A DNA stretch of 34,233 bases from NCBI GenBank assembly GCA_046596735.1, contig JBKJLP010000269.1:1-34233 (forward strand), given 5' to 3'. The notes under the pieces are model-generated. The model saw only the letters and a program-made list of their open reading frames with translations. It made no database searches and had not been told where the DNA came from. Made by a program: the position numbers and the translations under genes. This document shows, one piece after another, positions 1,602 to 32,054 of this stretch. Origin of the DNA: Mycobacteriales bacterium. GTDB taxonomy: Bacteria; Actinomycetota; Actinomycetes; Mycobacteriales; SCTD01. The stretch's first letter is position 1; each line of letters begins with the position of its first letter.

Positions 1602-1624
1602 GGCGTCATCATCCCTGCGGTCAC

Positions 1625-1816
1625 TCAGCGACGAAACAGCGACACGAACCTGCCCCGTTGTTTCGCGACCACCGGGGTATCGGACGATGCGGACGTTCCG
1701 CTGGCACACGTGCACTGCTGCGCCTTCGGGACACCCTGCATGACCTGGGCGACGTGCGCCCCGCACCCCGACCAGGTGGTCTTGCCGCACTTTCGGCATT
1801 TCGCCTTGCTGCACAT
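1625..1816 (-). CDS. Small (63 aa) cysteine-rich protein, probably metal-binding; unknown function
   Basis: An internal ATG of the 102-aa ORF is preceded by a GAAGGGA Shine-Dalgarno sequence. The product is MCSKAKCRKCGKTTWSGCGAHVAQVMQGVPKAQQCTCAS..., with six Cys arranged C-x4-C-x2-C-x7-C-x16-C-x-C. Third codon positions are almost all G/C, unlike the overlapping frame. Confidence 0.55.
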   Translation of the reverse strand: MCSKAKCRKCGKTTWSGCGAHVAQVMQGVPKAQQCTCASGTSASSDTPVVAKQRGRFVSLFRR

Positions 1817-1969
1817 GCCAGTCCCTTCGTTGGTTACTCCTGCTTGGGGCGATCCGGTCACGCCAGGCTGAGGAACAGCTTTTCCCTCTGCGCGACGTCC
1901 AACTCTGCGGCGTCGCCCTCCTCGAGCAGACACTGCTTGAGACCACTCGCCACGATCGGCCGCGGACGC

Positions 1970-3160: not shown

Positions 3161-3185
3161 AGTTTGTCATCGACCACTACTTATC
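3161..3185 (+). promoter_or_regulatory. Copy 1 of the shared bipartite motif (AGTTTG-tcatcgaccac-TACTTATC), upstream of the GH172 operon
   Basis: An AT-rich element in the 104-nt divergent intergenic region. It ends 25 nt before the GTG at 3211 and has the same spacing and orientation as the copies at 10117, 20755 and 20825. Confidence 0.5.
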
Positions 3186-3210
3186 TCTACAGGCTGGGAG
3201 GTGAGGCGAC

Positions 3211-4869
3211 GTGCCGTACGTCGGCGCTCACCTCGCCCGCCTTCGGCCGGGGGTGCAACGGCGCCGAGCGTCGACCTGGGACCGCAGCGGCGGCAACGAC
3301 GACTACCTGACCCTCGCAGCGGGTGCGACCTGCGTGCTGGCGCAGGACAACGGACCCGGCCAGATCACCCACCTGTGGTTCACCGTCGCCACCGCCGACC
3401 TGTGGTGGGGACGCAGCCTGGTGATCCGGGCCTACTGGGATGGCGAGCAGTCCCCGTCGGTCGAGGCACCGCTCGGCGACCTGCTGGGCGCCGGCAACTG
3501 CCTCACGTCGACCTACTCCTCGGCGATGTTCGCGGCCGCGCCGCGCGACGGGCTGTCACTCCACTCGTGGTTCCCGATGCCCTACGCGGACGGCTTCCGG
3601 CTCACCGTCACCAACGACGGCCCGCTGCCGGTGCCGGCGCTGTACGCCCACGTCGACTACGAGCGGTGGCCCGCGCCCGACCCGGAGTTGGGCCGGTTCC
3701 ACGCCTGGTGGAACCGGGAGCGCCGCACACCTCCCCCGCAGCCGGCCGGCGCCTCCGCACCCGGCGTCAACCTGACAGGCGCTGACAACTACCTGCTGCT
3801 GGGGGCCGAAGGCCGCGGGCACTACGTCGGGGCGGCGCTCTACGTCCACTCGGCCGACGGCGGCTGGTACGGCGAGGGAGACGACATGGTCTTCGTCGAC
3901 GACGACACGTGGCCCCCCTCACTGCACGGGACCGGCACCGAGGACTACTTCGGCACGGCTTGGTCGCCGGCGACGGCTTTCTCCCATCCCTACTACGGTC
4001 AGCCGATCGCGGACCGCGAGGACTGGGCCGGCTTCTCCAGCCTCTACCGGCTCCACGTGCCCGACCCAGTCCCCTTCGAGCGACGGCTACGAGCCACCCT
4101 CGAGCACGGGCACGCCAACGACCGTGCTGACGACTGGTCGTCCGTCGCCTACTGGTATCAGCGAGACCGCACGACCGCACTCCCCTCGCTCCCCCCCATG
4201 CCCGACCGCGAGCCGCCGTGGCCCCCGGACTGGCAGTCCAGGGTCCGCACCATCCATGCGCTCTACGGCGCGGAGTTGGTCGGACCAGAGCCCGACCCGC
4301 TCCGGCAGAGCCGCTTTCAGACCGGCGTGCGCTACCTCACCCGCGCAGCGCACGACCGAGATGGAGCGGCCGTCGACCGCGCACTGGAATGGCTCACCGG
4401 CCGCCCGCAGCAGCACAGCCCGCCGCGAGCCACCCCCGCGCCCGGCCCCCTCGCACCGCTTGTCCACAGCGACGACGACGCCCTCGCCGACTGGGTGGGC
4501 GGCCAGCCAGCAGACGCGCTGCTGGAGGCGGTGGCGAACGACTGGAGCGCGCGCTTCGACGCTGCCGCTGCGGGCGAAGCACGCCTGACGGTGGGGCTGC
4601 GCCTGCTCGCCGACCCTGACGGTCCGGGTCGGCAGCTCCTCGTCGCTGCCGGGCACTGCACCGTGCGAGCCGCCGGCGGTGGCCCCGAGCGGCTCACCGT
4701 GCTCGGTGCGCCACTCGCGCTGGTCCGCTGGTCGCTGGGCCGCCTCGACCCATGGGAGGCCCTACTGCGGGGCGACCTCGTCGTACGCGGCGATGGTGAC
4801 CTCGGACTGCGGCTGGTCGCGCTCTTCCCGCCGTACGCGCTCGACCCCGACCTGCGCGCAGGAAGCTGA
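3211..4869 (+). CDS. GH172 (DUF2961) family glycosidase fused to a C-terminal SCP2 / sterol-carrier-like domain
   Basis: GGGAGG Shine-Dalgarno sequence before the GTG start. DUF2961 hallmarks are present: GPGQITHLWF and GGWYGEGDDMVFVDDD...LHGTGTEDYFGTAWS. The last ~110 aa (LTVLGAPLALVRWSLGRLDPWEALLRGDLVVRGDGDLGLRLVALFP) follow the SCP2 pattern. There is no signal peptide. Confidence 0.7.
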   Translation: MPYVGAHLARLRPGVQRRRASTWDRSGGNDDYLTLAAGATCVLAQDNGPGQITHLWFTVATADLWWGRSLVIRAYWDGEQSPSVEAPLGDLLGAGNCLTSTYSSAMFAAAPRDGLSLHSWFPMPYADGFRLTVTNDGPLPVPALYAHVDYERWPAPDPELGRFHAWWNRERRTPPPQPAGASAPGVNLTGADNYLLLGAEGRGHYVGAALYVHSADGGWYGEGDDMVFVDDDTWPPSLHGTGTEDYFGTAWSPATAFSHPYYGQPIADREDWAGFSSLYRLHVPDPVPFERRLRATLEHGHANDRADDWSSVAYWYQRDRTTALPSLPPMPDREPPWPPDWQSRVRTIHALYGAELVGPEPDPLRQSRFQTGVRYLTRAAHDRDGAAVDRALEWLTGRPQQHSPPRATPAPGPLAPLVHSDDDALADWVGGQPADALLEAVANDWSARFDAAAAGEARLTVGLRLLADPDGPGRQLLVAAGHCTVRAAGGGPERLTVLGAPLALVRWSLGRLDPWEALLRGDLVVRGDGDLGLRLVALFPPYALDPDLRAGS

Positions 4870-4878
4870 GGAGTCACC

Positions 4879-6186
4879 ATGGCTGCACCCACCTGGCTCG
4901 CCGCGATCGAGGGCTTCTACGGCCCGCCCTTCACCCACGAGGAGCGGCTGGACCTCCTGCGCTGGCTGCCTTCGGCGGGGCTGACCGATTATGCCTACGG
5001 CCCCAAGGACGACCCGTTCCACCGCGACCACTGGCGCACGCCCTACCCGGCGGGGCACCTCGAGCAGTTCGCGCAGACGCTCGCCGTTGCCCGGGAGAGC
5101 GGCGTCGAGCTCACGCTGTCGATCTCACCGGGGCTGGACTGGGCCGGGGCGCCCGACCACGAAGCGCTGGTCGCCAAGCTCCGGCAGCTCTACGACCTAG
5201 GGGTCCGCTCGCTTGGCGTCTACTGGGACGATGTGGCCCCCGGTGGCGCTGACCTCGGCAGCTCGCACGGCGCGGGCGTCGCCGCGGCAGTGAGCGGGCT
5301 GCCCGACGACGTCCGCTGGCTGACCTGCGGCACGGACTACGCCACGACCTACGCGACCCCGTACCTCGCCGCCTTCGCCGCCGTCCTGCCGCCAGAGGTC
5401 GCGATCGCGTGGACCGGCCCGTCCATCACGAGCCCTGACGTTCCGGCGGACGTCGCCGCCCGCCTGGCCGAGGAGCTCGGTCACCCCTTGCTCCTCTGCG
5501 ACAACTGGCCGGTCAACGACCTAGGGATGTCCGCCGTGCTGCACCTGGGTCCGGCGCCGTATCGCGAGCCGGCACTGCGCCACGCGGTCGCCGGGGCAGG
5601 GTTCAACATGATGAGCCTGCCGCTCGCGAGCCGCCCCGGGCTGGAGCTGGCCGCCCGCCACTGGCGAGACCCCGTCGAGGATCGAGAGGCAGCGTGGAGC
5701 CGGGTCATCGCCAGCACGCCCGGTCTGCTACCGCTGGCGCGGGCCTGCCGTTCGTGGCTCACCGAGCCGGGACCCGACGCGGAGCTCGCGTCCTGGGTCG
5801 CACCGGGGCTCGCCGGCGACGACCGGCTCCTGCGGTTCCTCGAGGCCGGCTGCCGGCAGGACCTGCCGACCGCGTGGCAGGCAGAACTCGAGCCATGGCT
5901 GGCCTGCTGGGAGGCGGAGGCTCACCTCGCTGCCGGTGTGCTGCGGGTCCTGCGCGACCCAGCCGCCGTTGCCGATGCCCCAGACCTCGGGGTCGACTGG
6001 CCGCGCCTGCACCGGGCCGACCGGCAGGTCTTCGGGATCCGGTTCGCCGTCTACGGCGTGTCCTACCGGGTCGAGGACCGACTGCTCCCCCATCCGGACA
6101 GCGTCGTGCGCGGCGACAACCTCACCGACCTCGTGGTCACCGGGGCTTTGCGCGCCCTGCACGCGGGCGCTCAGGCGCACGGATGA
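4879..6186 (+). CDS. GH84 beta-N-acetylglucosaminidase (O-GlcNAcase/NagJ-like); cytoplasmic
   Basis: GAGGAG Shine-Dalgarno sequence. The sequence IEGFYGPPFTHEERLDLLRWL...YAYGPKDDPFHRDHWRTPYP and the catalytic Asp-Asp in GVYWDDV are GH84 signatures. Confidence 0.8.
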   Translation: MAAPTWLAAIEGFYGPPFTHEERLDLLRWLPSAGLTDYAYGPKDDPFHRDHWRTPYPAGHLEQFAQTLAVARESGVELTLSISPGLDWAGAPDHEALVAKLRQLYDLGVRSLGVYWDDVAPGGADLGSSHGAGVAAAVSGLPDDVRWLTCGTDYATTYATPYLAAFAAVLPPEVAIAWTGPSITSPDVPADVAARLAEELGHPLLLCDNWPVNDLGMSAVLHLGPAPYREPALRHAVAGAGFNMMSLPLASRPGLELAARHWRDPVEDREAAWSRVIASTPGLLPLARACRSWLTEPGPDAELASWVAPGLAGDDRLLRFLEAGCRQDLPTAWQAELEPWLACWEAEAHLAAGVLRVLRDPAAVADAPDLGVDWPRLHRADRQVFGIRFAVYGVSYRVEDRLLPHPDSVVRGDNLTDLVVTGALRALHAGAQAHG

Positions 6187-7382
6187 CGAGCATGTCCACT
6201 CCGCCCTACGGCGACGCCAGCCGTCCAGTTCTCCTCACGACGCACCTGATAGGAGACGTCAACCGGTCGCGGGTGCTGCAGGCACTCGTGGACAACGGCC
6301 CGCTGAGTCGCGCTGACCTCGCCCGGCTGGCCGGTGTCCCGCGCGCCACCATGGGGACCATCGTCCAGGCGCTGCTCGACGCCGGGTTGCTGGAGGAGGG
6401 CGACCATCACCGAGACGGGCGGGTCGGCAAGCCCTCCCGACCGCTCTGGTTCGGCCCGCGGGCCGGACTGTCGGTCGCCGTCGCCTTCGACGACACATCG
6501 GTCCGCGGGGCGCTGGTGAGCGCCCGCGGTGAGCGGCTGGACGACGTTAGGCTGCCGCTGGCCACTGCTGACGCCTCGTCGAAAGCCCTGCTCAAGACGC
6601 TTAAAGAGGTCGTTACTGCCGTCCTCCCGAAAGGGGAGGCAGTCATGGGCATTGGCATCGCCGTACCTGGCGTCTGCAACACACCGGCCGGGGAGGTCGT
6701 CGGCTCGGGGCAGCTGCCCGGTGCCGTAGGGACACAGATCACCCAGTCCTTGGCGAAGGCGTTCGCGGTCCCCGTGCTCGTCGACAACGACGCCCGGGCC
6801 CAGGCCCTCGGCGAGCGGTGGTTCGGCGACGGCCGTGGCACGGCGACCTTTGCCTCCCTCCAGACCGGCACGGGGCTCGGGGTGGGACTGGTGCTCGACG
6901 GGCGGCTGTTCCGGGGCGAGGACGGGCGCGTCGGCGAGCTCGGGCACACGCAGGTGGTGCCCGGCGGTGACCGCTGCCGTTGCGGGCTGCGCGGCTGCTG
7001 GGAAACGGTGGCCACCCTGCCGTGGCTGCGCGCCGAAGCCCGCGGTCGCCGGCTGCCCGACGCGAGCCACACCACCACCGCCAGTCTCACCGCGTCGGCG
7101 ACCCCCGCTGCCATGGGGCTGCTCGCGGACTACGCCACCAACCTCGGCGCGGGTCTGTCGTCGTTGGTCAACCTCCTCGGAGTCCGGCGGATCATCGCTC
7201 ACGGAGACATCCTCGGCGGCGGCGAGGCGATGCGACTGCGTGTGGAGGATGCGGTTCGCGAAGCCTCCCTCGGCTACCTGCGATCGGAGGTCACCCTCAC
7301 CTTCTCCGAACTCGCGGCAGACGCCACGGTCACCGGGGCGGCAGCGCTCGTGCTGTCGGAGACGTTCCGGCTCGCGGCATGA
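6183..7382 (+). CDS. ROK-family transcriptional regulator (NagC/Mlc/XylR type)
   Basis: The ATG overlaps the GH84 stop (ATGA). The N-terminal winged helix-turn-helix (wHTH) is NRSRVLQALVDNGPLSRADLARLAGVPRATMGTIVQALLDAGLL. The ROK sugar-binding core carries GELGH...CRCGLRGCWETV. The upstream part of the 562-aa ORF is a GC artefact. Confidence 0.8.
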   Translation: MTSMSTPPYGDASRPVLLTTHLIGDVNRSRVLQALVDNGPLSRADLARLAGVPRATMGTIVQALLDAGLLEEGDHHRDGRVGKPSRPLWFGPRAGLSVAVAFDDTSVRGALVSARGERLDDVRLPLATADASSKALLKTLKEVVTAVLPKGEAVMGIGIAVPGVCNTPAGEVVGSGQLPGAVGTQITQSLAKAFAVPVLVDNDARAQALGERWFGDGRGTATFASLQTGTGLGVGLVLDGRLFRGEDGRVGELGHTQVVPGGDRCRCGLRGCWETVATLPWLRAEARGRRLPDASHTTTASLTASATPAAMGLLADYATNLGAGLSSLVNLLGVRRIIAHGDILGGGEAMRLRVEDAVREASLGYLRSEVTLTFSELAADATVTGAAALVLSETFRLAA

Positions 7383-8191
7383 GGGCAGCTGTGGGCGATG
7401 TCGAGCTGGAGTACGACGTCCGAGGAGAAGGCCCCGAGGTGGTCTGGCTGCACGGGCTCTCCGGCTGCTTGGAGGAGTCCCGGCCGCTCGCCGAGGCGCT
7501 CGCGCGCACCCACCGCGTCCTCTGGTACTCCACCCGCGGACACGGTCGCTCGACGCCGGTGCACGAGCGGGCCCGCTACACCTATGACGTCATCGCCGAT
7601 GACCTGCAGCAGCTGATCGAACACGTGGGCTTCACCAAACCCGTGGTGGCAGGCGGCTCCCACGGAGCGAACACCGCGCTCCGGCACGCCCTGCGGCACC
7701 CGGGTTCGAGCCGTGCCCTGCTTCTCGTCGCCCCCGGCGCCAACGCGCTGCGCAAGCCTGATCCGCTCCGCTGGGCAATCGTGCGTGGGCACATGATGCT
7801 GGCCGCCGGTCGCGGGGAGCATGCGGTCGTCAAGGCGATCACCGGCTACGACCCCCGCGAGCCGAACCTGGACGACAAGGGCACCGCCGCGGTGGCTGCC
7901 GCCCGCACCCATGACCTTGCCTCGCTGCTGTCGGCGATGCGGCTCATCCCCTACCAGCAGGTCGTCTCCCCGGAAGCGCTTGCGCGCATCGTCGTACCTA
8001 CGACGGTCGCGGCCTGGCCGAAGGACCCACTGCTGCATCCGATCGCCGTGGCGCAGCGGATCGCCGAACTGCTCCCGAACGGGACCTTCGTGGAGATGTC
8101 ACGAGCGACCGACCTGGAGCCGGCGGCAGCGGCCGCCCTCATGGGCGGGTGGATCACCGACCTACTCCTGCGCAGCGCTGACACCGCGTAG
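7379..8191 (+). CDS. Alpha/beta-fold serine hydrolase
   Basis: The ATG overlaps the ROK stop (ATGA). It has VVWLHGLSG, RGHGRS and the nucleophile elbow GGSHGA. Confidence 0.7.
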   Translation: MRAAVGDVELEYDVRGEGPEVVWLHGLSGCLEESRPLAEALARTHRVLWYSTRGHGRSTPVHERARYTYDVIADDLQQLIEHVGFTKPVVAGGSHGANTALRHALRHPGSSRALLLVAPGANALRKPDPLRWAIVRGHMMLAAGRGEHAVVKAITGYDPREPNLDDKGTAAVAAARTHDLASLLSAMRLIPYQQVVSPEALARIVVPTTVAAWPKDPLLHPIAVAQRIAELLPNGTFVEMSRATDLEPAAAAALMGGWITDLLLRSADTA

Positions 8192-9022
8192 CTGGCAAAG
8201 CAGCCGAGCCAGGTGGGCCCGCGCGAACAGCGGAACAGCGTGCCCGAGGCCGGGCAGCACCTCGAGCACAGCACCGGGGATCCTGGCCGCGTAGTCCCGC
8301 GCGTGACTGAGGGGCACCACGTCGTCCTGGTCTCCGTGCAGCACCACGACGCCGCACGAGGCGCCGGCTGGCCAAGCGGCGCAGTCCCGCGCCCGCTGGA
8401 TCTGCCGCGCGTCGTTGCGGAGCCCCGTACCGCTCGTCCACGACGGCTGGTCCCGGTGGAAGCGGGCGAGAGCTGACTGCACATCAGGCTCGTCCAGCAA
8501 CGCCCGCTCGGCCTCGGTGAAGCTCGTGACTTCCGGCGGCGTGGGCGGCCAGCGACGTGCCCTGACGCGCGACAGTGCAGCGAGAGCCGGCCAGACCCCG
8601 GGGACCGCGGCCATCGCGCGCATCAGCGGTGGCAACGGCATGAGGTTCGGCTGCAGGGGGCAGCACAGCAACAGGCCCGCGCAGCGCTCCGGGTGAGCGA
8701 CAGCGAAGGCGTACGACGACGGTCCCCCACCGGAGATCCCCAGCACGACGGCATCCGTGATCCCGAGGGCGTTCAGCAACCCGGCGTACAGATCGGCGGA
8801 CTCGCGCGCCGTCCGGCCCGATGCCAAGGGGGTCCGGCCGTAGCCAGGGCGGGTCACCAGCAAGACGCGCGCCTTCCCGGCCAGGTCCTCCGCCACGGTC
8901 TGGGCCTGCCGCCAGTCGCCAGGCATCCCATGGACCACGAGCACAGCGGGACCGTCCCCCGTGTCGCACACCTCGATCGGACCGCGCTCCGTGAGCACGA
9001 CGTGAGCGGTCAGCGCTGCCAT
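8162..9022 (-). CDS. Alpha/beta-fold serine hydrolase
   Basis: I chose the ATG at 9022, which has a GGAGA sequence 8 nt upstream; this start overlaps the nagA 3' end by 13 nt. It has VLVVHGMPGD and the nucleophile elbow GISGGG. Its 3' end overlaps the convergent hydrolase gene by 30 nt. Confidence 0.7.
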   Translation of the reverse strand: MAALTAHVVLTERGPIEVCDTGDGPAVLVVHGMPGDWRQAQTVAEDLAGKARVLLVTRPGYGRTPLASGRTARESADLYAGLLNALGITDAVVLGISGGGPSSYAFAVAHPERCAGLLLCCPLQPNLMPLPPLMRAMAAVPGVWPALAALSRVRARRWPPTPPEVTSFTEAERALLDEPDVQSALARFHRDQPSWTSGTGLRNDARQIQRARDCAAWPAGASCGVVVLHGDQDDVVPLSHARDYAARIPGAVLEVLPGLGHAVPLFARAHLARLLCQLRGVSAAQE

Positions 9023-10107
9023 CGGACGTCTCCGCTGACGACAGTCGCGCACACCTCGAGGTCTCGGTTGAGCACGACGAGGTCGGCCGGGTCACCGACC
9101 TGCAGACTGTAGGTCGACCCGCCGACGAGCCGGCCCGGCGTCATCGAGGCCATCCTCAGGGCCGAGGCCAGCGGCACCCCCCAGGCGACGAGGTTGCGTA
9201 CGCCCTGGTCGAGGCCGGCCCGACTTCCCGCGAGGGTGCCGTCCGCCAGCCGCACCCCGGTCTCACCGGGCAGGTCCACGTCGACGGCATCGCTGACCAG
9301 GCAGACCCGGTCAGCGCCGACGGCCGCGATCAAGATTCGCGCGACGGCGGGATGGACGTGGGCGCCGTCGGCGATCAGCTCGACGGTCAGCCCCGGGAGG
9401 TCAAGTGCCGCTCCCACCAGCCCCGGAGCCCGGTGGTGCAGCCCGGACATGGCGTTGAAGCAGTGTGTGATGTGGCTGGCCCCCAGCCCGACAGCCCGCA
9501 CTGCCTGCTCGTACGTCGCCCCGCTGTGCCCCAGCGCGACGACCACACCAGCCTCGCGCGCGCGGGAGATGACCTCGTCGGCGCCCGCGAGCTCGGGGGC
9601 CAGGGTGAGTAGGACGGGTGGCCCGGCCACAAGCAGCTGCTCGAGCCCGTCGAGCGCGGGCGCCTGCAGCGCGTTGACCGGTTGGGCACCGGCATGGCCG
9701 GGAGCGAGCCAGGGCCCTTCCAGGTGCACCCCGAGCAACCGCGCCCCCGACGCCTCGCTCCGGGAGACCCTCGTGACGAGCGCCACCAGGTCGTCCATGG
9801 GGGTGGCGATCGTCGTCGCCAGGAAGCCGGTTACCCCTCGACGAAGCAGCGCCCGAGACAAGCCCTCGACATCGGGAGAGCCAGCCCCAACCAGTCCGCG
9901 GCCATCCAGGGCGTGCACGTGAAGGTCGACGAACCCCGGCGCGACCACCTCCCCGGAGAGCACGGTCGGCGCCGTTCCCAACGCGCCCGAGGCGCCCACC
10001 GCCACGACGCGACCGTCGTCGATGAGGACGTCCGCGGGCTGTAGCGCCGATCCGAGGAGGACCTGCGAGCCCCGGACCAGCAGTGCGGACACGCGCCATC
10101 TTGACAC
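9010..10107 (-). CDS. nagA: N-acetylglucosamine-6-phosphate deacetylase
   Basis: Motifs: PGFVDLHVHA, LGVHLEGPWL, ALGHSGATYEQ, THCFNAMSGLHHR, ELIADGAHVHP. The start is either the GTG at 10107 or the GTG at 10092; neither has a clear Shine-Dalgarno sequence. Confidence 0.85.
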   Translation of the reverse strand: MSRWRVSALLVRGSQVLLGSALQPADVLIDDGRVVAVGASGALGTAPTVLSGEVVAPGFVDLHVHALDGRGLVGAGSPDVEGLSRALLRRGVTGFLATTIATPMDDLVALVTRVSRSEASGARLLGVHLEGPWLAPGHAGAQPVNALQAPALDGLEQLLVAGPPVLLTLAPELAGADEVISRAREAGVVVALGHSGATYEQAVRAVGLGASHITHCFNAMSGLHHRAPGLVGAALDLPGLTVELIADGAHVHPAVARILIAAVGADRVCLVSDAVDVDLPGETGVRLADGTLAGSRAGLDQGVRNLVAWGVPLASALRMASMTPGRLVGGSTYSLQVGDPADLVVLNRDLEVCATVVSGDVRWQR

Positions 10108-10128
10108 CGGGTGCCGTATTTGTAAAGA
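10101..10128 (+). promoter_or_regulatory. Sigma70-like promoter for the ROK-like/SIS/ARH operon (TTGACA-N16-TAAAGA)
   Basis: TTGACA at 10101-10106 and TAAAGA(T) at 10123-10128 lie in a 47-62 nt divergent intergenic region. The -10 element sits inside shared-motif copy 2. Confidence 0.45.
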
Positions 10129-10141
10129 TCGACTACTTATC
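10117..10141 (+). promoter_or_regulatory. Copy 2 of the shared bipartite motif (TATTTG-taaagatcgac-TACTTATC)
   Basis: It ends 13 nt before the GTG at 10155, overlaps the putative -10 element, and has the same architecture as the other three copies. Confidence 0.5.
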
Positions 10142-10154
10142 CAGGGAGGTCGCC

Positions 10155-10883
10155 GTGGCCGCAGACGTCACCGCCTGCGTCGAGGTCGGCGCGAGCAGCG
10201 TCCAGACCGTGCTGCTCGGGCCCGGCCCTCACGTCGAGGTCTTTGCCGGAGCTCAGCGGCCTCCGGCAGGCACCCCTCTCCTGATCGCTGTCCCCGGCCT
10301 CATTCAGGGCACCAGAGTGGTCGCCGCCTCCAACGTCGGGTGGTACGACGTGGACCCGGCCGAGGCTCTCGGGCTGCCTGCCCCTGCGGATTTCGTCTGC
10401 AACGACGCCGAGGCCGCTGCTGTCGGCGAGTCGGCGCTCCTGCCGGGAGCACCCGACCTGGTGTTCGTCGGCCTCGGCACGGGAGTCGGCGGGGCCGTGG
10501 TGCGCGACGGCTCCGTCCGGGCCAACCTCTTCGCCCACCTCGGGGGTTACAGCGACCGCGTGTGCACCTGCACCCGCACCGGGTGCCTGGAGACGGTCGC
10601 GGGCGGCTGGGCCCTTGCCCCGCGCCTCAGCGACGCGGACCTCCCGGCCATCGCGCGAGCACTCGGCGACGCGGTGGAGCGCGAGCCCCTGGCCACGCCG
10701 CGGCTCGTCGTGCTCGCCGGCGGGATGAGCCGCGCCCACCCCGCGTTGCTCCCGCTGCTCCAGGCGGCGCTTCCCGGCCGTACGGTCGCACCCTCGTCGG
10801 CCCTACACGCCAAGTCCGCGGCCGCGTGGGGGCTGCGGCACCTCTGGCGGCTGGCGGCCACGGCTCCGGTGGCCGGCCGGTGA
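10155..10883 (+). CDS. ROK-family sugar-kinase-like protein without a wHTH; atypical phosphate-1 loop
   Basis: GGGAGG Shine-Dalgarno sequence 5 nt before the GTG. ROK core motifs are CNDAEAAAVGE, GLGTGVGGAVV and H...CTCTRTGCLETV. The usual DxGGT loop reads EVGASS. Confidence 0.6.
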   Translation: MAADVTACVEVGASSVQTVLLGPGPHVEVFAGAQRPPAGTPLLIAVPGLIQGTRVVAASNVGWYDVDPAEALGLPAPADFVCNDAEAAAVGESALLPGAPDLVFVGLGTGVGGAVVRDGSVRANLFAHLGGYSDRVCTCTRTGCLETVAGGWALAPRLSDADLPAIARALGDAVEREPLATPRLVVLAGGMSRAHPALLPLLQAALPGRTVAPSSALHAKSAAAWGLRHLWRLAATAPVAGR

Positions 10884-13143: not shown

Positions 13144-13149
13144 CCCGCC

Positions 13150-14196
13150 TCATCCGAGCGAGAGCGTTACCAGCCACCCGAGCAGGTCCTTCTCCGGCAC
13201 ATTCGCGGTGACGGTAGCCACCAGGCCCTGCGGCCCGGCGAAGCGGACCTTCACCCCCGCCGCGACGGCCTGCACCCGGACGGTTCGACTGCCCACCCTC
13301 ACCGCCGTCCCGTCACTACCGACCGCCAGCCGACGGGTGAGCCCGCGCTCGACGCGGAGCAGCACCAGCCGATCGCCCTGCCCCCACGCCAGCACGCCAC
13401 CCTCGACCGCAACGCCGGCCCCGCCGGGGTCGGGCTGGATGACCGCCACGGTCCGGCCACGGGGCAGCCCCAGTGGCGCTGACGCCAACGGTATGCCGAG
13501 CGCGGACACCAGCGTCTGGTCCGCCACGTCCTTGACCGTCTCCAGCCCGGCCTGCTGCGGTGGTCCGCTCGGCGCCGGGCCCGGGAACAGGCCCGCGCCC
13601 ACGAGGCTGGGCCCGGATCCCGAGGACACCAAGGTCCGGCGACGCACCACGTCGCCGTCGATGGTCCACACCTCCTGCACGAGCAGCCCCGCCTCTGTCA
13701 CACAGCTGACGGCGCTGTCCGTCGCGGTAGCCGCCCGCACAGGGCCGGCGTCGAGCGGCTCGTACGTCCGCCACTGGGTGCACGACCGCGTCCCGACCGT
13801 CCGGGTCCCCTCGGCGGTCGCCTGCCCGTGCGCCGCTGCGACGTCCAGCGCCGTCGCCAGGTGCCAAGCCGGTCCGGCGAAGGTCGGCGGGATGTCCTGG
13901 ACGAGGGCGCTGGTGCCGTCCGGCTTGAGGAGGTACTGGCCGCGCTCGCTGTAGGCAACTCCCCCCAGCGATGCCCCGGTCGTGGACTGGGCTGCGTAGG
14001 TGATGCTCCGCGCACGCTGCGGCGAGGCGACATCGACGACCTCGGTGCTGACCCTGGCAGGCTCCTGAGCGAGGTCGTCGATCCGGTAGACCAGCCGGGT
14101 CGACCCGCCTCCGGGAGCGTCACCGGAGGCGCCGGCGCAGCCGGCCGCCGCGCACAAGACGACGGGGAGCAGGAAGGATGCGCGTGGCCGCTTCAC
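13150..14196 (-). CDS. Lipoprotein of unknown function; last gene of the transporter operon
   Basis: GTG start with an AAAGGA Shine-Dalgarno sequence. The signal peptide with lipobox is MKRPRASFLLPVVLCAAAGC. The start lies 22 nt after the binding-protein stop. Confidence 0.6.
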   Translation of the reverse strand: MKRPRASFLLPVVLCAAAGCAGASGDAPGGGSTRLVYRIDDLAQEPARVSTEVVDVASPQRARSITYAAQSTTGASLGGVAYSERGQYLLKPDGTSALVQDIPPTFAGPAWHLATALDVAAAHGQATAEGTRTVGTRSCTQWRTYEPLDAGPVRAATATDSAVSCVTEAGLLVQEVWTIDGDVVRRRTLVSSGSGPSLVGAGLFPGPAPSGPPQQAGLETVKDVADQTLVSALGIPLASAPLGLPRGRTVAVIQPDPGGAGVAVEGGVLAWGQGDRLVLLRVERGLTRRLAVGSDGTAVRVGSRTVRVQAVAAGVKVRFAGPQGLVATVTANVPEKDLLGWLVTLSLG

Positions 14197-14218
14197 CGTC
14201 CGATCCTTTCGCGTCCGG

Positions 14219-15859
14219 CTACGTCGGCTTGTAACCGGTCCAGTACTTCGTCAGGGCCACTGAGCCGGACATGCCCGGCCCGATGGTGACCCAGTACTTC
14301 GGGTATTGCGGGAACCGGTAGGTCTTGGCGTCCGCGTCCCAGGTCACCACCGTCAGGTGCTGCTGACCCTTGGTGACGAACGGCCCACGCGGTCCGGGGA
14401 AGCTGAAGAAGAACGGCACGTGGGCGTCGTAGAAGAACCTGCCCCGGATGGCATCGGCTCCGAGCAGCAGCGAGTCGGCGTTGAGTACGCCGGTCCGGGC
14501 GACTCCGAACCGCATGATCGCCGCTGAGGTGAGGATCTGCGCGCAGGACAGCTGCACCGCCACCGAGCCGTCCTGTCCGTCTCCGTTGTTGTACTTGTTG
14601 TAGATCCGCTTGCAGTTGCCCTCCGCACCGTGCCCGCTCCCGGCGGGGACCCGGGCCGACAGCCCGATCGCCTTGCCCCACTGCTGCTGGTCCATGAGAG
14701 AACCAGCCAGGTCGCTGTCCGCAAGCACCGTGTACGACGTAAACGTCCACTGGGGGAACCACTGCTGCTGGGTCATCGCCTGGGTGAAGAAGACCCACGC
14801 GATGGGGTTGGTTGAGGCGATGTAGACCTGATCACAGCCCTTCGCCTTCACCCGGGTGGCGACCGCTGAGGAGGTCTGCTGCGCCTGAGAGATATCCCCG
14901 CTGTAGGCCTGCTCGTCGGTGAAGGCGAGCCCGACCTTCCTCATCTCGGCGTTCATCGTCTTGGCGTAGGTCGGCCAGTCGCCGCTGGCGTCGCTCTGCG
15001 GGTGAACGAAGCAGGCCTTGTGCTTAGCGGTGTCGATGACGTTTTTGCCCATCGACGCCCACGCCCGAAAGCTCGGCTCCAGGGCCTCGTTGATCATCAG
15101 CCCGTTGGCGCCGATCTTCTTGAGCGACGCGGGGTCGTCCCGACCGCCGAAGACGGGCAGGTGACGCGCCATCAGATAGTCGGACTCCACGTGCAGGCCT
15201 GGGATGGCGAGGAAGTCCTTGTTGTCGTCGGCCATCTGCTTGGCCGCGGCGATCGCCTGCTGGTCGCAGGCACCGCCGCCACCGCCGCCGTCATCGACAG
15301 TGTCGAGGACGAAGGTGCGGCCCCCGATGCCGCCGGTCTCGTTGATGTAGCGGACGTAGGCGGCGTAGGACTTCGCCGGGTCTCCGGTCTGCGCGCTGCC
15401 GAATAGCGCAGAGACCTGGCCGGCCTGCCCGCAGCCAGAGACGTTGTAGCTCACGCCGACGCGGACCTCCTTGGCCGTGACCCCTTGCGTCTTGAGCCCG
15501 AACGACGGGAGCGTGGCGCCCGGCTTGAACGTCGTCACGGGACCCGGACGGGTCGAGTCACCCGGAACGGCCGCTGTGGCTCCGCCTGACGTGAACGGCT
15601 TCCCGGCCGAAGGGGCCTTTCCGCCCGACGCAGCCGCCTTCCCCACGGCGGCGGCGGCCGACGGTCGCGCGGCGGTGCCCCCCGCGATGGCACTGCCGGG
15701 GGCGCCCTGGCCCGTGGTCAATGCGGTCGCCGTTTGGTCGCGGTTGGCGTAGTTGACCTGCCCGACGGAGGCGATCGAGGTCACGAGCACGCTCACGGCG
15801 ACCACCGTGAGGACGCGTTGCCCCCTGTTCGAGGTCAGCGCTTCCACCAGTCTGCTCAT
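14219..15859 (-). CDS. Liv-type (Peripla_BP_6-like) ABC substrate-binding protein with an N-terminal TM anchor and a long Ala/Gly/Pro/Thr linker
   Basis: GGAGG Shine-Dalgarno sequence. The N-terminus [17 protein letters not shown] is followed by ~90 aa of low-complexity sequence. The LivJ-like core follows ([44 protein letters not shown]). Confidence 0.7.
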
Positions 15860-15878
15860 CGTGCGACCTCCGGGTACG

Positions 15879-17912
15879 TCACCGGTGCGACCCGGCGCCT
15901 TGCAAGAACACCGATCTGAGCAGATCGGTGCGGTTGAGCAACTCGCTCGTCGGTCCCGAGAAGCGCACTTCGCCCTTCTCCATGAAGTAGGCGCGGTCCG
16001 CCAGGGTTAAAGCGACGTTGACGGACTGTTCGACGAGGACGACGGACGTTCCTGCCGCGTTGATCTCGCGGAGTGCGACGAGGAGCTCCTGCACCACGGT
16101 GGGCGCCAGCCCGAGGGACAGCTCGTCGATGAGCAGCAGCTTCGGCCTGAGCAGGAAGGACTGGGCCAGGGTGAGCATCTGCCGCTCACCGCCGGACAGC
16201 ACCCCCGCCGGCTGTCGGAGGCGCTCGCGCAGCCGTGGGAACAGGTCGAGCGCCTCGGCTGTGCGCCGGCCGACGAGGTCGCGGTCTTTGCGGATGAGGA
16301 AGGCACCCATCGCGAGGTTCTCCTCGACGGTGAGCCGCGGGAAGACCCCCCGACCGCCCGGCACCTGCACGATGCCGCGGGCGACCGTGCGCTCGGGCGC
16401 CTCCCCCGTGATCGCCTCGCCCTCGAACCACACGTTGCCGCCATCCGGCTCGACGACGCCGGAGATGGCGTTGAGGATGGTCGACTTCCCCGCCCCGTTG
16501 GTGCCGAGCAGAGCGACGATCTCGCCCGCCCGGATCTCCAGATCCACCCCGAACAGGACCTGCACCCCGCTGTAGGACACGGTGACGTCCTGGGTCTGCA
16601 GTAGGACGTCAGGGCGCAGGCCACCCTCGTCGCCGCTCCCCGAACTGGCGAGCAGGCGCCGAGCCGGGTCGAGCCGGGCGACATCGGCATCGATGTAGCG
16701 GCAGGCGATGAAGAAGTAGCGGATCCCGATGATGAACAAGACCCCGAGGTAGACCATGGCGCCCCGCAGCGAAGCGCTTCCCAGAAGCACCCCCAGGAGG
16801 GCCAGCGGCACGCCGGCGAGAGCCACGACTCCTTGCAGCGCGAAGGCGGTGCTGCGGGTCTCCGGCGAGGCGATGGTGGCCGTCACGGCGAGCAGGGACG
16901 GGCTCAGGACAGCGAACAGCATGACGATGGCCCACAGCAGCGGGACCACGACCCAGAGCGTCGGAGCTCCTGCGGTGAGCACCATGAGAACGCCCGCCAG
17001 CCCACCGATCAGGCTCAGCGTGCGCAGCCCGATGCTGGGAGCCACGTTGAGCCGCCGCTGGATGTACGCCGTCCCGTAGATGACAGCGGGCAGGGTGAAC
17101 GCCGTCCCGATGCCCGTGATGTAGCCGCGACCGCTAGCCGTCACCCCGAAGTCGTCCTCCAGGTAGAACTGGAAGATCGTGCGGGCCGGGATGAGTCCTG
17201 CCGCCGCGAACGCCGTGCCGATCCACTGGTAGCGCAGGGAGCGGATCCGCCAGAGGTCACGGACCGTCTGCTGGAACGGAGGCGCTTGTGGGGTCTCCGC
17301 CGGCTCGTGCCGGCCGCGCTCGGGCTCGGCCAGGCGCATCGCGATCAGGATCATCACGAACGTCGGGACGGCGAGGACGAAGAACGGGACGCGGAAGCCG
17401 AAGCGCTGACCGAGCTCGCCCGCGGCGAACGCTCCCAGCGCTCCCCCGACGGTCTGGCCGATGCTGTAGACGCCGAAGGCCTTCATGCGGGTGGCTGGCG
17501 TGTAGGAGTCGGCCATGATGCTGCCGTGAACGGGGGTGTTCACGATCTCGCCCGACGTGGCGATCACCCGCGCGACGATGAGGAACCACAGCGCGGGGGC
17601 AAGACCAGTGAAGATCGAGAACACCGACCAGATGACGGCTCCACCGATGGCAATGGGGACGCGCTTCCAGCGGTCGGCGAGGTAGGCCAGCGGCATGCCC
17701 AGGATCGGTCCGACGACGAGCACGAGGATCGCGATCGAGCCGAGCGTTCCCTCGCCGACGTTGAAGTGCCGCGCGATGTCGGGGCTGAGGATGGTGAACG
17801 CCTGCGTGTCGATCTGATCGGCCATCGTGAGGCCGAAGAGCACGAACAGCGGGAACAGCGGCTCGCCGCCGAGGTAGGCGGAGAGCTTGGCGCGCAGGGC
17901 CGAGGGCCTCAT
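15879..17912 (-). CDS. Fusion protein: N-terminal MFS-type multi-TM domain (~430 aa) plus C-terminal LivF-like ABC ATPase (~235 aa)
   Basis: The ATG overlaps the permease stop (ATGA). The N-terminal half has about 12 hydrophobic spans with MFS-like loops ([10 protein letters not shown]). The C-terminal half has Walker [10 protein letters not shown], the signature LSGGERQ and Walker B LLLIDE. Confidence 0.8.
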
Positions 17913-19903
17913 GCTGTCGCCTCTGCCCTGGCGGCGAGGCCACTCGTCGCACCAGCCAGGTCGACCTCAGCGTTGACGCGCACAGCGATGTCGTCCCTGG
18001 GGTCGACGCCGGTCACCTTCGTGGCGAGCAGGTCGCGGCCAGCGAGGAGCGGGCGGATCAGGCCGCCGGGCAGGAACAGGAGCAGGACGAGGAGACCGAC
18101 GCCCGTGGAGAGAAGGCTGATCACGGCCGCTTGGTGCGGGAAGACCTGCGAGGCGAAGTACTGCACCGCGAAGATGTAGGTCCCCCCGATGAGCGCTCCG
18201 GACAACGAGCCGAGGCCCCCGATGACCGCGGCAGCCAGCAGCGCGAGCGAGTTGACCGGGGGGAAGCTCGCCGGGTCCCCGGAGCCGATGGCGTCGACGA
18301 ACAGGAAACCCGCCGCGCCAGCCATCATCCCGGTGATCGCGTAGGCGGTGAGCTTGGTCCGCACCACGGAGATCCCCATGGAAGCGGCTTGCACGGGGTT
18401 CTCCTTGACCGCCCGGATGGCGCGCCCGAGTTGCGAGGCGTCGATGAGGCGTGCGCTCCCGAGGACGACCGCGAGGAGCACGAAGGCACAGACGTACTGC
18501 ACGTTGGTCGTCATGTAGGTCGGTAGGCGCAGGTTCTGACCCGGCTTGATCCACGACTGCTGGAACAGCCAGGACGTGCACGTGACGGCGAACGCCAGCG
18601 TGACGACCGCCAGGTTGACCCCCTGCAGCCGGAGCGCGGGCAGTCCGACCAGAGCGGCGGCGATCCCGCCGACGACCACGGCGACCAGGAACGCCAGCCA
18701 GAAGGGAACTCCGAGCACGGCGTAGGCGCGCACTCCCACCAGACCCCCGAGGCCGGCCACGGCCCATTGGCCGAGGGAGAGCTGTCCGGCCCATCCGGTG
18801 AGGATGGTCGCGGAGACCACGGCAGTGCACAGCAGGACGGTGGCCGCCACGAAGTAGGTGTTGTGGTCAGACAGCAGCATCGGCAGGACCACGACCGCGC
18901 CCACACCCAGGCACTGTCCGAGGAAGCGCAGGTTCGACCAGCGCGGGTCGCTGGCGATGCGCGCCGCGAGCGGACGGATCGGCTCTCCGGTGTCCGGCGC
19001 GGACTCCGCGGCGCTCGAGGCCTGCCGCAGCAGGTCCTTGCGGGTCAGGAGCACGGCGACGACCGCGACGAACAGCACCAGGTCGGTGAGTCCGGACTGC
19101 CCTGTCCAGACGAAGATGCACTGATCGGCCACGCCGAGCGCCAAGCCCACTCCGAACGCCACGCCCACCGATGAGAGCCCGGCGATGGTGGCTGCCGCCA
19201 GACCTCGGAACAGCAGCGACAGCCCGACGGCGGGGTCAGAGGAGTAACCCACGACGGGGGCAAGCAGGATCGCCGCAACGGCCGAGAGCAGTGCCGCCAG
19301 CACCCACGCCAGCGTCGACACGCGGCGGACCGGGATGCCCAGCAGCCGCGCGCGCTGGGCGTTCTCGGCGGAGGCCCGCAGGGCGATGCCGTACGGCGAC
19401 CAGCGGAGGAAGACGAACAGCGACGCCGCGACGATCGGGCCGATGACGAGCACCAGCAGGTCACCGGTGTGGAACACGACCCGACCGAACGACACGGGCG
19501 CGACGTCGAACGGCAGCGGGAAGGTGGCAGCGCCCCCGAAGACGACGTCGTCGCCGCCCTGGGTCTTGGGCTTAGGGATGCCCGCCCGACCAGCCGTGAT
19601 GATCTGCGACACCCCGATCGTCGCGATCAGGACGATCAACCGAGGACTGGCGAAGAGCCGCCGGATGACGGTCAGCTCGATCAGCGCACCGACCGCCGCA
19701 GTCGCGAGCAGCGCGCAGGCCAGCGCCGCCACGTAGGGGAAGTGCGCGCGGTTGGTCAGGGAGAACATCATCGCGACGGCCAGGGCACCGAGCTCGCCCT
19801 GGGCCAGACTGATGGAGCGGTTGGACATGTAGATGAGGACGATGCCGGCCGCGAGCAGGCCGTTGGCGACGCCGAAGACGAGGCCCTGCAGGACGATGTC
19901 CAC
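17909..19903 (-). CDS. Fused LivH-LivM branched-chain-type ABC permease
   Basis: The GTG overlaps the livG-like stop (TAGTG). The N-terminal half is LivH-like (GLVFGVANGLLAAGIVLIY, LAQGELG). The C-terminal half is LivM-like (TILTGWAGQLSLGQWA). Confidence 0.8.
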   Translation of the reverse strand: MDIVLQGLVFGVANGLLAAGIVLIYMSNRSISLAQGELGALAVAMMFSLTNRAHFPYVAALACALLATAAVGALIELTVIRRLFASPRLIVLIATIGVSQIITAGRAGIPKPKTQGGDDVVFGGAATFPLPFDVAPVSFGRVVFHTGDLLVLVIGPIVAASLFVFLRWSPYGIALRASAENAQRARLLGIPVRRVSTLAWVLAALLSAVAAILLAPVVGYSSDPAVGLSLLFRGLAAATIAGLSSVGVAFGVGLALGVADQCIFVWTGQSGLTDLVLFVAVVAVLLTRKDLLRQASSAAESAPDTGEPIRPLAARIASDPRWSNLRFLGQCLGVGAVVVLPMLLSDHNTYFVAATVLLCTAVVSATILTGWAGQLSLGQWAVAGLGGLVGVRAYAVLGVPFWLAFLVAVVVGGIAAALVGLPALRLQGVNLAVVTLAFAVTCTSWLFQQSWIKPGQNLRLPTYMTTNVQYVCAFVLLAVVLGSARLIDASQLGRAIRAVKENPVQAASMGISVVRTKLTAYAITGMMAGAAGFLFVDAIGSGDPASFPPVNSLALLAAAVIGGLGSLSGALIGGTYIFAVQYFASQVFPHQAAVISLLSTGVGLLVLLLFLPGGLIRPLLAGRDLLATKVTGVDPRDDIAVRVNAEVDLAGATSGLAARAEATA

Positions 19904-20733
19904 TACGCCCCCACGACGGCTGCGCCGGAGCGGTTGATCGCCGCCAGGTCATCGCCCAGGTAGGAGGCGATGACCCGCGGATCCCGTACGACGTCGTCCG
20001 GAGGGCCGGACAGCACGACGGACCCTGTCTCCAGCGCGTAGAGGCGGTCGGAGATCCCCATCAGCAAGGGCATGTCGTGCTCGATCACGAGGACGGCGGC
20101 ACCGGTCTGCTCGCGGATCCGGACGATCAGCGGTCCCAGGGCCTCGGCCTCGCGCTGCGCGATGCCGGAGGAGGGCTCGTCGAAGAGAATGACCGACGGC
20201 CGCTGGATGAGCAGGCAGCCGAGGTCCACGACCCGTCGCGTGCCGGTGCTGAGCTCGCGGATGAACTTCCCGGCGTACGACGTCAGGCCCATCAGCTCGA
20301 TCATCTCGTCTGCGGCGGCGAGGGCGGCCTGCTCGGCCCGACGAGAGGCCGGGCTACCCGGCACCCTGGCCGTCCAGCCCAGGTCGTGCAGCGCGAGCTC
20401 CGACGCCGTGCGCAGGGTGTCGCGCACCGTCATGGACGGGTAGAGCCGGGCGTCCTGATAGCTGCGGCCGAGGCCGGCGGCGGCCCGCTCGTGCGGCGCC
20501 ATGCTGGTCAGGTCGGTGCTACCGAGGCTCACCTGACCACGGCAGGGCAGGTGCCCGGTGATGCAGTCGAACAGAGTGGTCTTGCCTGCCCCGTTGGGCC
20601 CGATGATCCCGACGATCTCGTGGGGCAGCACGTCGAGAGACACGCCCGCCAGAGCCCGGACACCGCCGAAGGAGACGGCGATGTCGCGCACGGCGAGGGC
20701 AGGCGCGACCGCGCTCCTCGCTCCATGGACCAT
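19903..20733 (-). CDS. LivG-like ABC ATPase
   Basis: GGAAGGG Shine-Dalgarno sequence. It has Walker A GPNGAGKTT, LSTGTRR, Walker B ILFDEP and an IASYLG C-terminal tail. Confidence 0.85.
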   Translation of the reverse strand: MVHGARSAVAPALAVRDIAVSFGGVRALAGVSLDVLPHEIVGIIGPNGAGKTTLFDCITGHLPCRGQVSLGSTDLTSMAPHERAAAGLGRSYQDARLYPSMTVRDTLRTASELALHDLGWTARVPGSPASRRAEQAALAAADEMIELMGLTSYAGKFIRELSTGTRRVVDLGCLLIQRPSVILFDEPSSGIAQREAEALGPLIVRIREQTGAAVLVIEHDMPLLMGISDRLYALETGSVVLSGPPDDVVRDPRVIASYLGDDLAAINRSGAAVVGA

Positions 20734-20754
20734 CGATGACCCTTCCGCGTTCGG

Positions 20755-20779
20755 AATAAGTAGTAAACGCCTGCAAATA
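20755..20779 (-). promoter_or_regulatory. Copy 3 of the shared bipartite motif (minus strand: TATTTG-caggcgtttac-TACTTATT), facing the ABC operon
   Basis: It ends 21 nt before the ATG at 20733. It forms a divergent pair with copy 4 in the same 128-nt AT-rich intergenic region. Confidence 0.5.
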
Positions 20780-20824
20780 GGTCGCCGTCAAGGGCCTTGC
20801 ACCCCTCTTGACAGCCTCCCGACT

Positions 20825-20849
20825 TATTTGCAAGAGTTGAATACATATC
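20825..20849 (+). promoter_or_regulatory. Copy 4 of the shared bipartite motif (TATTTG-caagagttgaa-TACATATC), facing the secreted-protein/oxidoreductase operon
   Basis: It ends 12 nt before the ATG at 20862. A TTGACA at 20808-20813 ends 17 nt before the end of TATTTG (16 nt in copy 2). Confidence 0.5.
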
Positions 20850-22537: not shown

Positions 22538-22553
22538 CCGAAGGACCTACACC

Positions 22554-28687: not shown

Positions 28688-28769
28688 TTCCAGTAGGTCG
28701 GACGCTTCAGATTCTTAGCGCTTCCTCTGTTCGACTCAACCACACAGCCCGGAGTTCCCGTCGGGCACG

Positions 28770-32019: not shown

Positions 32020-32054
32020 GCCGGGAGTCTAGGAGTGCGCGGGCCTGTCGGCGG

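Follow-up and report, generated by a model that had tools for sequence, protein, structure and literature searches.

The question raised by this locus is what four copies of one AT-rich box, all with identical spacing, do upstream of genes in DNA that is otherwise so rich in G+C. The stretch, contig JBKJLP010000269.1 from an uncultured actinobacterium, was analyzed over its entire length (34,233 nucleotides, i.e., 34 kb, with a G+C content of 70.4%) and is referred to below as the window. Our answer is that the four boxes are probably operators of the ROK-family regulator encoded at 6183-7382 of the same locus, a regulator that would control its own gene and up to six transcription units spread over ~25 kb. 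Most likely this is a known kind of switch, in which a ROK repressor acts on a palindromic operator in a sugar-catabolic regulon, here in uncultured soil Actinomycetota.

Four boxes in three divergent intergenic regions

An earlier, sequence-only reading of the window had reported four 25-mers. All four are present exactly at the positions that it gave:

Candidate operator site 1: 3161-3185, forward strand, AGTTTGTCATCGACCACTACTTATC; in the divergent spacer between the ceramidase-like/DUF4432 operon (reverse strand) and the GH172-GH84-ROK regulator-hydrolase operon (forward strand)
Candidate operator site 2: 10117-10141, forward strand, TATTTGTAAAGATCGACTACTTATC; in the center of the 62-nt divergent spacer between nagA (reverse strand) and the short-ROK/SIS/ADP-ribosylglycohydrolase (ARH) operon (GTG at 10155, forward strand)
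Candidate operator site 3: 20755-20779, reverse strand, TATTTGCAGGCGTTTACTACTTATT; 21 nt 5' of the ABC-transporter operon
Candidate operator site 4: 20825-20849, forward strand, TATTTGCAAGAGTTGAATACATATC; 12 nt 5' of the secreted-protein/oxidoreductase operon

The gaps between sites 1 to 4 and the start codons (25, 13, 21 and 12 nt, respectively) also agree with those reported before. Site 1, whose left arm reads AGTTTG, is the weakest copy; it is conserved in the near-twin locus L001 at 1475-1499. A search of the 34 kb for TATTTG-N11-TACTTATC with at most three mismatches returns exactly the four sites, compared with 0.04 expected from dinucleotide shuffles. The octamer TACTTATC had been suspected by eye to be rare and to have no other copy, and this is borne out: it occurs twice in the window, inside sites 1 and 2, compared with 0.01 expected. 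Scans of the window with two position weight matrices (PWMs) gave no further site of at least 10 bits.

The sites occupy three intergenic regions, all of which are divergent, and up to six transcription units may therefore be controlled. Thus, of the proposal that the element precedes four transcription units, the four sites are real, but the count of units has to be raised to as many as six.

An imperfect dyad

The sequence-only reading described the element as non-palindromic, which is wrong. It is an imperfect dyad of 25 bp with a 21-bp core, wATwTGTAw-N7-wTACAwATw, and the symmetry becomes clearer in orthologous loci. In the window, positions 2, 3, 6, 7 and 8 pair with positions 24, 23, 20, 19 and 18; five of the 12 pairs are complementary in each copy, so that the symmetry sums to 20 compared with 13.4 expected (P ~0.03). 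The full TGYA-N9-TRCA core is matched exactly by site 4 alone among the window copies because the right arms of the other three read TACT. The orthologous sites that were found with an asymmetric PWM (L002-L012) have five to eight complementary pairs out of 12, and the range over all orthologous copies is five to ten. Clearly more symmetric copies, TATTTGTAAATGTCTCATACATATC in L010 and TATTTGTAAACCTTTGCTGCAAATC in L012, were found with the PWM derived from the four asymmetric window sites. Over 29 sites, G6 and C20 are present in every one, T5 and T18 in 28 and A8 in 27.

Conservation across related loci

Two sets of related loci were used, one collected around the ARH-family gene from 12 metagenome-assembled genomes (MAGs) and the other around homologues of the ROK regulator 6183-7382. 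Among the genomes, the MAG 'uncultured Actinomycetota bacterium MFD02581.bin.1.174' comes closest, at 92% protein identity. When a PWM made from the four window copies was scanned on orthologous loci, as the sequence-only reading had suggested, the motif was found before the same gene families. It follows these families through about 15 shuffled loci of Frankiales/Mycobacteriales-like MAGs and soil metagenomes.

There is a site in the spacer between nagA and the short ROK gene of the window, L001, L002, L003, L010, L011, L012/L093 and L094, and a weaker one in that of L006. In an alignment of this spacer from eight lineages, a TTGACA box and the motif are the only conserved parts, and the 10 nt that lie between them are not conserved. 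The gene for the secreted protein has a site in L002, L003, L010, L011, L013 and L094, where it stands beside ROK and hydrolase genes and not beside the ABC operon. Sites are also present in the spacer between the operon for the ABC transporter and substrate-binding protein and the ROK gene (L018, L024, L026, L034, L093 and L094), 5' of GH84 (L023, L039 and L094), 5' of the short ROK gene (L033, L035 and L064) and directly before the regulator gene (L021 and L022). In L094, whose regulator is 65% identical to that of the window, a four-site architecture is contained within 10 kb. This comparative evidence supports the earlier suggestion that the motif links ~25 kb into one regulon.

The gene set itself is reshuffled in almost every lineage (window 594-25235; L001-L064, L093 and L094). 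The recurrent members are GH172, GH84, nagA, the short ROK gene, the SIS gene, the ARH-family gene, the ceramidase-like gene, two alpha/beta hydrolases, the secreted 560-aa protein, the GFO oxidoreductases and the Liv-type ABC transporter.

The ROK regulator and its probable link to the sites

The protein proposed to bind the sites is encoded within the cluster:

ROK-family regulator gene: 6183-7382, forward strand; third in the operon that follows site 1

Its product, of 399 aa, combines an N-terminal winged helix-turn-helix (wHTH) domain with a ROK sugar-binding domain (Pfam ROK 7e-46, MarR_2/HTH_20). It has 1z05, Lmo0178 and Mlc as relatives in the PDB, and 740 homologues of it were found. 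No other DNA-binding protein was detected in the cluster. The regulator would be autoregulated because its gene sits in the operon behind site 1. In many homologues of 39-55% identity, the best-scoring site is found within ~300 nt 5' of the ROK gene, and sites stand directly 5' of ROK homologues in L018, L021, L022, L024, L026, L034, L093 and L094.

The PWM made from the four window sites alone discriminated poorly on the ROK-anchored loci and gave false matches in AT-rich loci; it was replaced by a symmetric PWM because the four-site version overfits the spacer. The symmetric PWM, which was trained on the window and L002-L012 and tested on independent ROK-anchored loci, has 12 matches of at least 20 bits where the ROK homologue of the locus is at least 38% identical (334 kb in total), and all 12 adjoin cluster genes or a ROK gene. 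At the same threshold, it has no match in 91 kb of high-G+C loci with distant ROK paralogues (at most 37% identity) and none in 20 shuffles that keep the local 100-nt composition. The conservation of the motif, its position before the ROK gene, its absence with distant paralogues and its GT-N11-AC register, which is described below, all argue for one of the two roles that the sequence-only reading had considered, i.e., that of an operator of the locus-encoded ROK protein.

Two other explanations are to be weighed against these results. The first is that the boxes resemble each other by chance and share no function, being parts of promoter regions that are AT-rich although the genome has 70% G+C. 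Where G+C is high, intergenic DNA is indeed locally AT-rich, and shuffles of the whole window overstate significance there. However, the shuffles that keep local composition yield no match of at least 20 bits, the register of the 25-mer is kept at orthologous positions while the proteins are 40-65% identical and the flanks are not conserved, and the sites can be found again with a PWM derived independently from another genus. Coincidence is thus scarcely credible.

The second explanation is that the sites belong to another dimeric factor encoded outside the cluster, such as a DasR-like regulator of the GntR/HutC type or a LacI-type regulator, and that the ROK gene is merely co-regulated. The N-acetylglucosamine (GlcNAc) genes of actinobacteria are often under the control of DasR. 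Furthermore, a heptamer, GACCACT, in the spacers of site 1 (3170-3178, CGACCACT) and of the site at 4218-4242 of L024 (GGACCACT) resembles half of the Streptomyces DasR element 'dre'. On the other side, a second DNA-binding gene was found neither in the window cluster nor among the recurrent genes of related loci, the motif tracks the presence of ROK homologues and is often found directly 5' of the ROK gene, and its GT-N11-AC register equals that of NagR, a validated ROK regulator. Only in one site lineage does the dre-like heptamer occur, and its place there is the non-conserved spacer. We consider control by such an outside factor improbable. The assignment of site 1 to DasR was dropped, given the single site lineage and the absence of a GntR gene nearby; the likeness is probably a coincidence.

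Comparison with known ROK operators

ROK regulators bind palindromes of 21-23 bp (PMC3553997, PMC4288165, PMC9599254). The closest likeness to the window sites is offered by NagR of Bifidobacterium, a ROK regulator whose regulon was predicted earlier (PMC4746261) and whose operators were validated by electrophoretic mobility shift assay and knockout transcriptome (Arzamasov et al. 2022, PMC9599254). Its effectors are GlcNAc and the phosphates of GlcNAc (PMC9599254). The NagR operators are 21-bp palindromes in which GT (positions 4-5) and AC (positions 17-18) are invariant (PMC9599254, Text S1 and Table S3). The G6-T7...A19-C20 of the window motif corresponds to the same GT-N11-AC register, and all four window sites read G-T/C...A-C. 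When the ~34,000 window positions were scored with a PWM that had only 56 published NagR operators of 'motif II' as its source, sites 2, 4 and 1 came out first, second and third, with scores of 17.0, 13.8 and 8.6, whereas the best score in shuffles is 5.9 on average and 13.6 at most. The matches are in exact register, at positions 3-23 of the 25-mer.

NagR and the window regulator were compared by operator and regulon content. Both are autoregulated (the window protein by prediction) ROK regulators with a wHTH domain, and the NagR regulon core, which consists of nagK (a ROK kinase), nagB and nagA together with glycan hydrolases and ABC transporters, has candidate counterparts among the window genes. 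The published NagR sites TATGTaAtTATTATTAACAAt and aaTGTAAGGaAACTTGACAAA are near-matches to the window motif; the right arms of the window sites (TACT) are like those of NagR 'motif I', and the left arms (TGTA/TGCA) are like those of 'motif II'. There are also several differences. The window comes from an uncultured high-G+C Frankiales/Mycobacteriales-like actinobacterium and not from Bifidobacterium, and its motif is conserved over 25 bp, with two more bases at either end. Sites of the window type lie 0-25 nt from start codons, whereas those of NagR lie ~65-250 nt away. Finally, unlike the NagR regulon, the window contains GH172, ARH-family and ceramidase-like genes, DUF4432, a Liv-type ABC transporter with an MFS-ATPase fusion and GFO oxidoreductases.

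The NagC and Mlc proteins of E. coli are more distant parallels. They are ROK repressors with a wHTH domain and linker that control the uptake and catabolism of amino sugars or glucose, and the best-conserved bases of their operators, as in the window motif, lie 5-6 bp away from the midpoint in both directions. These operators are quasi-palindromes of ~23 bp with an invariant TT/AA at +/-5,6, i.e., TT-N9-AA (PMC4288165), and the effector of NagC is GlcNAc-6-P (PMC9599254). The window motif differs in that it has TA-N9-TA within TGTA-N9-TACA, with T/C-A at positions 7-8 and T-A at positions 18-19 in place of TT and AA. The best NCBIfam matches of the window regulator are NagC and Mlc, but they fall far below the cut-offs of these families (136.9 bits vs 650 for NagC and 135.8 vs 530 for Mlc), and the protein is therefore an equivalog of neither. 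The ROK regulons of Thermotogae (ChiR, XylR, TreR and others), which were found by comparative genomics, are likewise autoregulated and use 23-bp palindromes (Kazanov et al. 2013, PMC3553997). They resemble the window in being local sugar-catabolic regulons that have ABC transporters and hydrolases as targets; their phylum, motif sequences and target pathways are different, and no orthology is implied.

Promoter geometry and the proposed mechanism

Next to two of the sites there are hexamers that are likely to be -35 boxes:

Likely -35 box of the short-ROK operon, TTGACA: 10101-10106, forward strand, 10 nt 5' of site 2
Likely -35 box, TTGACA: 20808-20813, forward strand, 11 nt 5' of site 4, with the geometry seen at site 2

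These are the hexamers that the sequence-only reading had correctly placed, at sites 2 and 4, as ending 16-17 nt before the end of the TATTTG box. In the spacer between nagA and the short ROK gene, TTGACA is intact in seven of eight lineages (L002 has CTGTCA). A 17-nt spacer measured from 10101-10106 would put the -10 element at AAAGAT (10124-10129), which is preceded by TG and lies inside site 2. More generally, spacers of 17-18 nt place -10 hexamers (AAAGAT, AAATGT, AAACGT and similar ones) and the preceding TG in the left half of the operator. In six lineages, a TACATT half-site is located 6-7 nt before the GTG or ATG of the secreted-protein gene, which has no Shine-Dalgarno sequence there; to judge by its spacing, this half-site would be a TANNNT -10 box in the layout typical of leaderless mRNA. 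In L018, L021 and L022, the ROK open reading frame (ORF) starts right after the site, and the spacer contains a TATAGT/TATACT hexamer.

Such overlaps bear on the suggestion that TATTTG and TACTTATC are themselves promoter elements of a dedicated class, read by an alternative sigma factor. It would explain the fixed 11-nt spacing, and it draws on the coincidence of one half-site with a TANNNT -10 box in relatives and on the four window copies, which have one orientation to the gene and stop 12-25 nt short of its start codon. However, a gap of 11 nt is too short for -35/-10 recognition by the sigma-70 family, the element is dyad-symmetric in relatives, and a separate conserved TTGACA -35 box stands alongside it. 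In spacers of 60-130 nt, divergent genes share a single copy, and the distance to the start codon varies from ~0 to more than 200 nt. Nor does every copy point toward its gene, as had been claimed from the window: the AAGTA-type half-site, which is gene-proximal in the window, is gene-distal in relatives (L002 at 1888, L003 at 136 and L011 at 1706), so that the orientation flips between lineages. There is no sigma factor gene in the cluster, and we regard a dedicated promoter class as very unlikely.

An element acting in RNA, such as a hairpin in the 5' untranslated region or a protein-binding leader that controls translation or stability, is more unlikely still. In the window, 12-25 nt do separate the ends of the sites from the start codons, with the Shine-Dalgarno sequences following immediately, and a hairpin could in principle arise from an inverted repeat. 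Nevertheless, the four regions fold no better than shuffled ones (z = 0.8, 1.4, -0.3 and 0.2), with the arms unpaired in the minimum free energy structures. The conserved positions are fixed bases without a compensatory pattern, and genes on both strands share one and the same copy. In the six lineages with the TACATT layout, the site is not in the mRNA because it lies upstream of the leaderless start.

The mechanism that we propose for the ROK regulator is as follows. A ROK dimer would bind physically to the 25-bp inverted repeat, each half-site taking up one winged-helix domain. The operators would be situated on the core promoters or just downstream of them and, because they would cover the -10 region and the transcription start, the bound protein would block RNA polymerase and thus presumably repress transcription rather than activate it. 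Repression would extend to a GlcNAc-type core (GH84, the ROK-like kinase, NagA and the SIS protein similar to NagB-II/GlmS), to the Liv-type ABC transporter, to the regulator itself and to accessory enzymes (GH172, the ARH-family and ceramidase-like proteins, hydrolases and oxidoreductases). By analogy with NagC and NagR, the effector may be an amino sugar or an amino-sugar phosphate from the pathway, whose binding to the ROK domain would release the repressor. The gene functions fit a regulon of the NagC/NagR type, in that nagA is above its cut-off and the SIS protein resembles NagB-II/GlmS-C.

Several points weigh against this interpretation. The window copies are only weakly symmetric (five of 12 pairs each, P ~0.03), and in three of the four the right arm is TACT instead of TACA. 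The sites in L013-L092 were picked with a symmetrized PWM, so that their apparent symmetry is inflated and only the L002-L012 set is unbiased in this respect; the same loci were chosen via the ROK gene, which makes its co-occurrence with the motif partly a matter of design, and the unbiased ARH-anchored set has only ~7 informative loci. No site was found near the close ROK homologues of L016, L017, L025, L028-L032 and L058 in the available DNA, where many contigs are short. Site 3 is outside the top ten matches of the NagR PWM in the window because its spacer is G+C-rich and it has C at position 7. Lastly, a strict sigma-70 promoter scan of the three intergenic regions found no complete consensus, and for this reason the promoter positions and their overlap with the operators are inferred from partial matches. 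A terminator scan of the same three regions found nothing.

In the divergent region that holds sites 3 and 4 (20755-20849), the centers of the two operators are 70 bp apart. Paired operators are present in relatives as well, ~83 bp apart in L035 (6804/6887) and ~140 bp apart in L033 (2203/2343). Those of L051 (1408/1428) overlap with an offset of 20 bp, and in L050 and L052 only one box per pair scores at least 14 bits. It is possible that such pairs serve cooperative binding or looping, as is known for NagC.

Candidate regulated units and gene content

The units that may be controlled from the three intergenic regions were delineated with gene identities taken from Pfam and NCBIfam profile searches:

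Candidate unit a: 594-3106, reverse strand; ceramidase-like gene (1970-3106) and DUF4432 gene (594-1973)
Candidate unit b: 3211-8191, forward strand; GH172/DUF2961 (3211-4869), GH84 beta-N-acetylglucosaminidase (4879-6186), ROK regulator (6183-7382) and alpha/beta hydrolase (~7397-8191)
Candidate unit c: 8162-10092, reverse strand; nagA, GlcNAc-6-P deacetylase (9010-10092), and alpha/beta hydrolase (8162-9052)
Candidate unit d: 10155-13143, forward strand; short ROK-like gene (10155-10883), SIS-domain gene similar to GlmS-C/NagB-II (10880-11824) and ARH-family gene (~11800-13143)
Candidate unit e: 13150-20733, reverse strand; LivG-like ATPase (19903-20733), fused LivH/M-type permease (17909-19903), MFS-ABC ATPase fusion (15879-17912), Peripla_BP_6-like binding protein (14219-15859) and a protein without family (13150-14196)
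Candidate unit f: 20862-25235, forward strand; secreted protein (20862-22537), GFO/IDH/MocA oxidoreductase (to 23603), PQ-loop/SemiSWEET-like protein (23600-24199) and second GFO/IDH/MocA oxidoreductase (24171-25235)

The start of the ceramidase-like gene (3106) is 54 nt from site 1, from which unit a may be controlled; this gene recurs beside the ROK gene in L020, L022, L023, L035, L054 and L093. The coding regions of unit b overlap or abut, which suggests that they form one operon.

The nagA product of unit c passes the TIGR00221 equivalog cut-off (237 bits vs 225.65), and the pair of nagA and hydrolase is kept beside a site in eight lineages. The longest ORF for nagA (9010-10107) starts with a GTG at 10107 that overlaps the TTGACA box, but the true start is probably the GTG at 10092 because alignments to relatives begin at residues 4-9. 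The latter start is 24 nt from site 2 and gives the divergent spacer its length of 62 nt.

The gene order of unit d is conserved in L001-L012. The SIS protein has NagB-II and GlmS-C matches, all of them below the NCBIfam cut-offs. The short ROK-like protein (242 aa) aligns only to the middle of the ROK profile (61-191 of 294) and stays below all kinase cut-offs. Its length of 242 aa (10155-10883, forward strand) is conserved in all relatives.

In unit e, the 546-aa protein of 14219-15859 had no match in Pfam, NCBIfam or a PDB sequence search. Its L093 orthologue (8256-9869, 41% identity) carries PF13458 Peripla_BP_6, and the protein is therefore probably the substrate-binding component of the ABC system in a highly divergent form. 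For 13150-14196 of the same unit and for 20862-22537 of unit f, nothing was found in Pfam at E<=5, in NCBIfam or in a PDB sequence search. In unit f, the longest ORF of the first GFO/IDH/MocA oxidoreductase runs from 22110 with a Pfam match from residue 151, and the gene probably starts internally, after 22537.

Possible scope of the regulon

The members of the set to which no amino-sugar role has been assigned are GH172, the ARH-family protein, the ceramidase-like amidase, DUF4432, three proteins without a Pfam family and the Liv-type importer with its MFS-fused second ATPase. The members of GH172 that have been characterized to date are D-arabinofuranosidases or alpha-fructofuranosidases. 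Literature searches returned no description of this cluster or regulon in non-bifidobacterial actinobacteria. We put forward tentatively, as a proposal that may well prove too broad, that the GT-N11-AC operator code is common to ROK regulators from Bifidobacterium to uncultured Frankiales/Mycobacteriales-like soil actinobacteria, where it would define an undescribed, widespread and heavily shuffled catabolic regulon joining the GlcNAc core to enzymes without an assigned amino-sugar role. If this is true, the regulon would mark a new pathway for a GlcNAc-containing glycoconjugate, possibly derived from the cell wall, and the operators would double as -10 boxes of leaderless genes. The motif also suggests that the NagR operator code, known up to now from Bifidobacteriaceae only, reaches distant high-G+C Actinomycetota, which would aid the prediction of regulons in organisms that cannot be cultured.

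Because a ROK repressor on a palindromic operator is a textbook mechanism, the value of the locus lies in annotation and in the pointer to an uncharacterized pathway for amino sugars or glycoconjugates. What were 25 kb of mostly unannotated genes in an uncultured actinobacterium become one testable regulon with a named regulator, and the PWM may be used to find further members of the regulon in MAGs.

Minor observations on the cluster and its surroundings

Beyond the 3' end of the cluster, 25769-34233 contains seemingly unrelated genes, none with a copy of the motif:

UPF0182 gene: 25769-28687, reverse strand, outside the cluster
HAMP-PAS histidine kinase gene: 29254-32019, reverse strand, outside the cluster; an adjacent response regulator was not detected
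PDZ/Lon-C protein gene: 32055-33095, reverse strand, outside the cluster

The MFS-ABC fusion of unit e (15879-17912, reverse strand) is a 677-aa protein with MFS_1 at residues 26-361 and an ABC ATPase at residues 455-597. This architecture is unusual, and it is conserved at 46-64% identity in L018, L024, L035, L093 and L094.

The gene for the secreted protein of unit f is split by a 1-nt frameshift near 21303 into the overlapping ORFs 20862-21404 and 21143-22537. A C is missing there in ATCG-CACG by comparison with the near-twin L001 (ATCGCCACG). Relatives encode the secreted protein as one chain of ~561 aa with a signal peptide (in L010 from 1807), and the frameshift in the window is either a sequencing or assembly error or the mark of a recent pseudogene.

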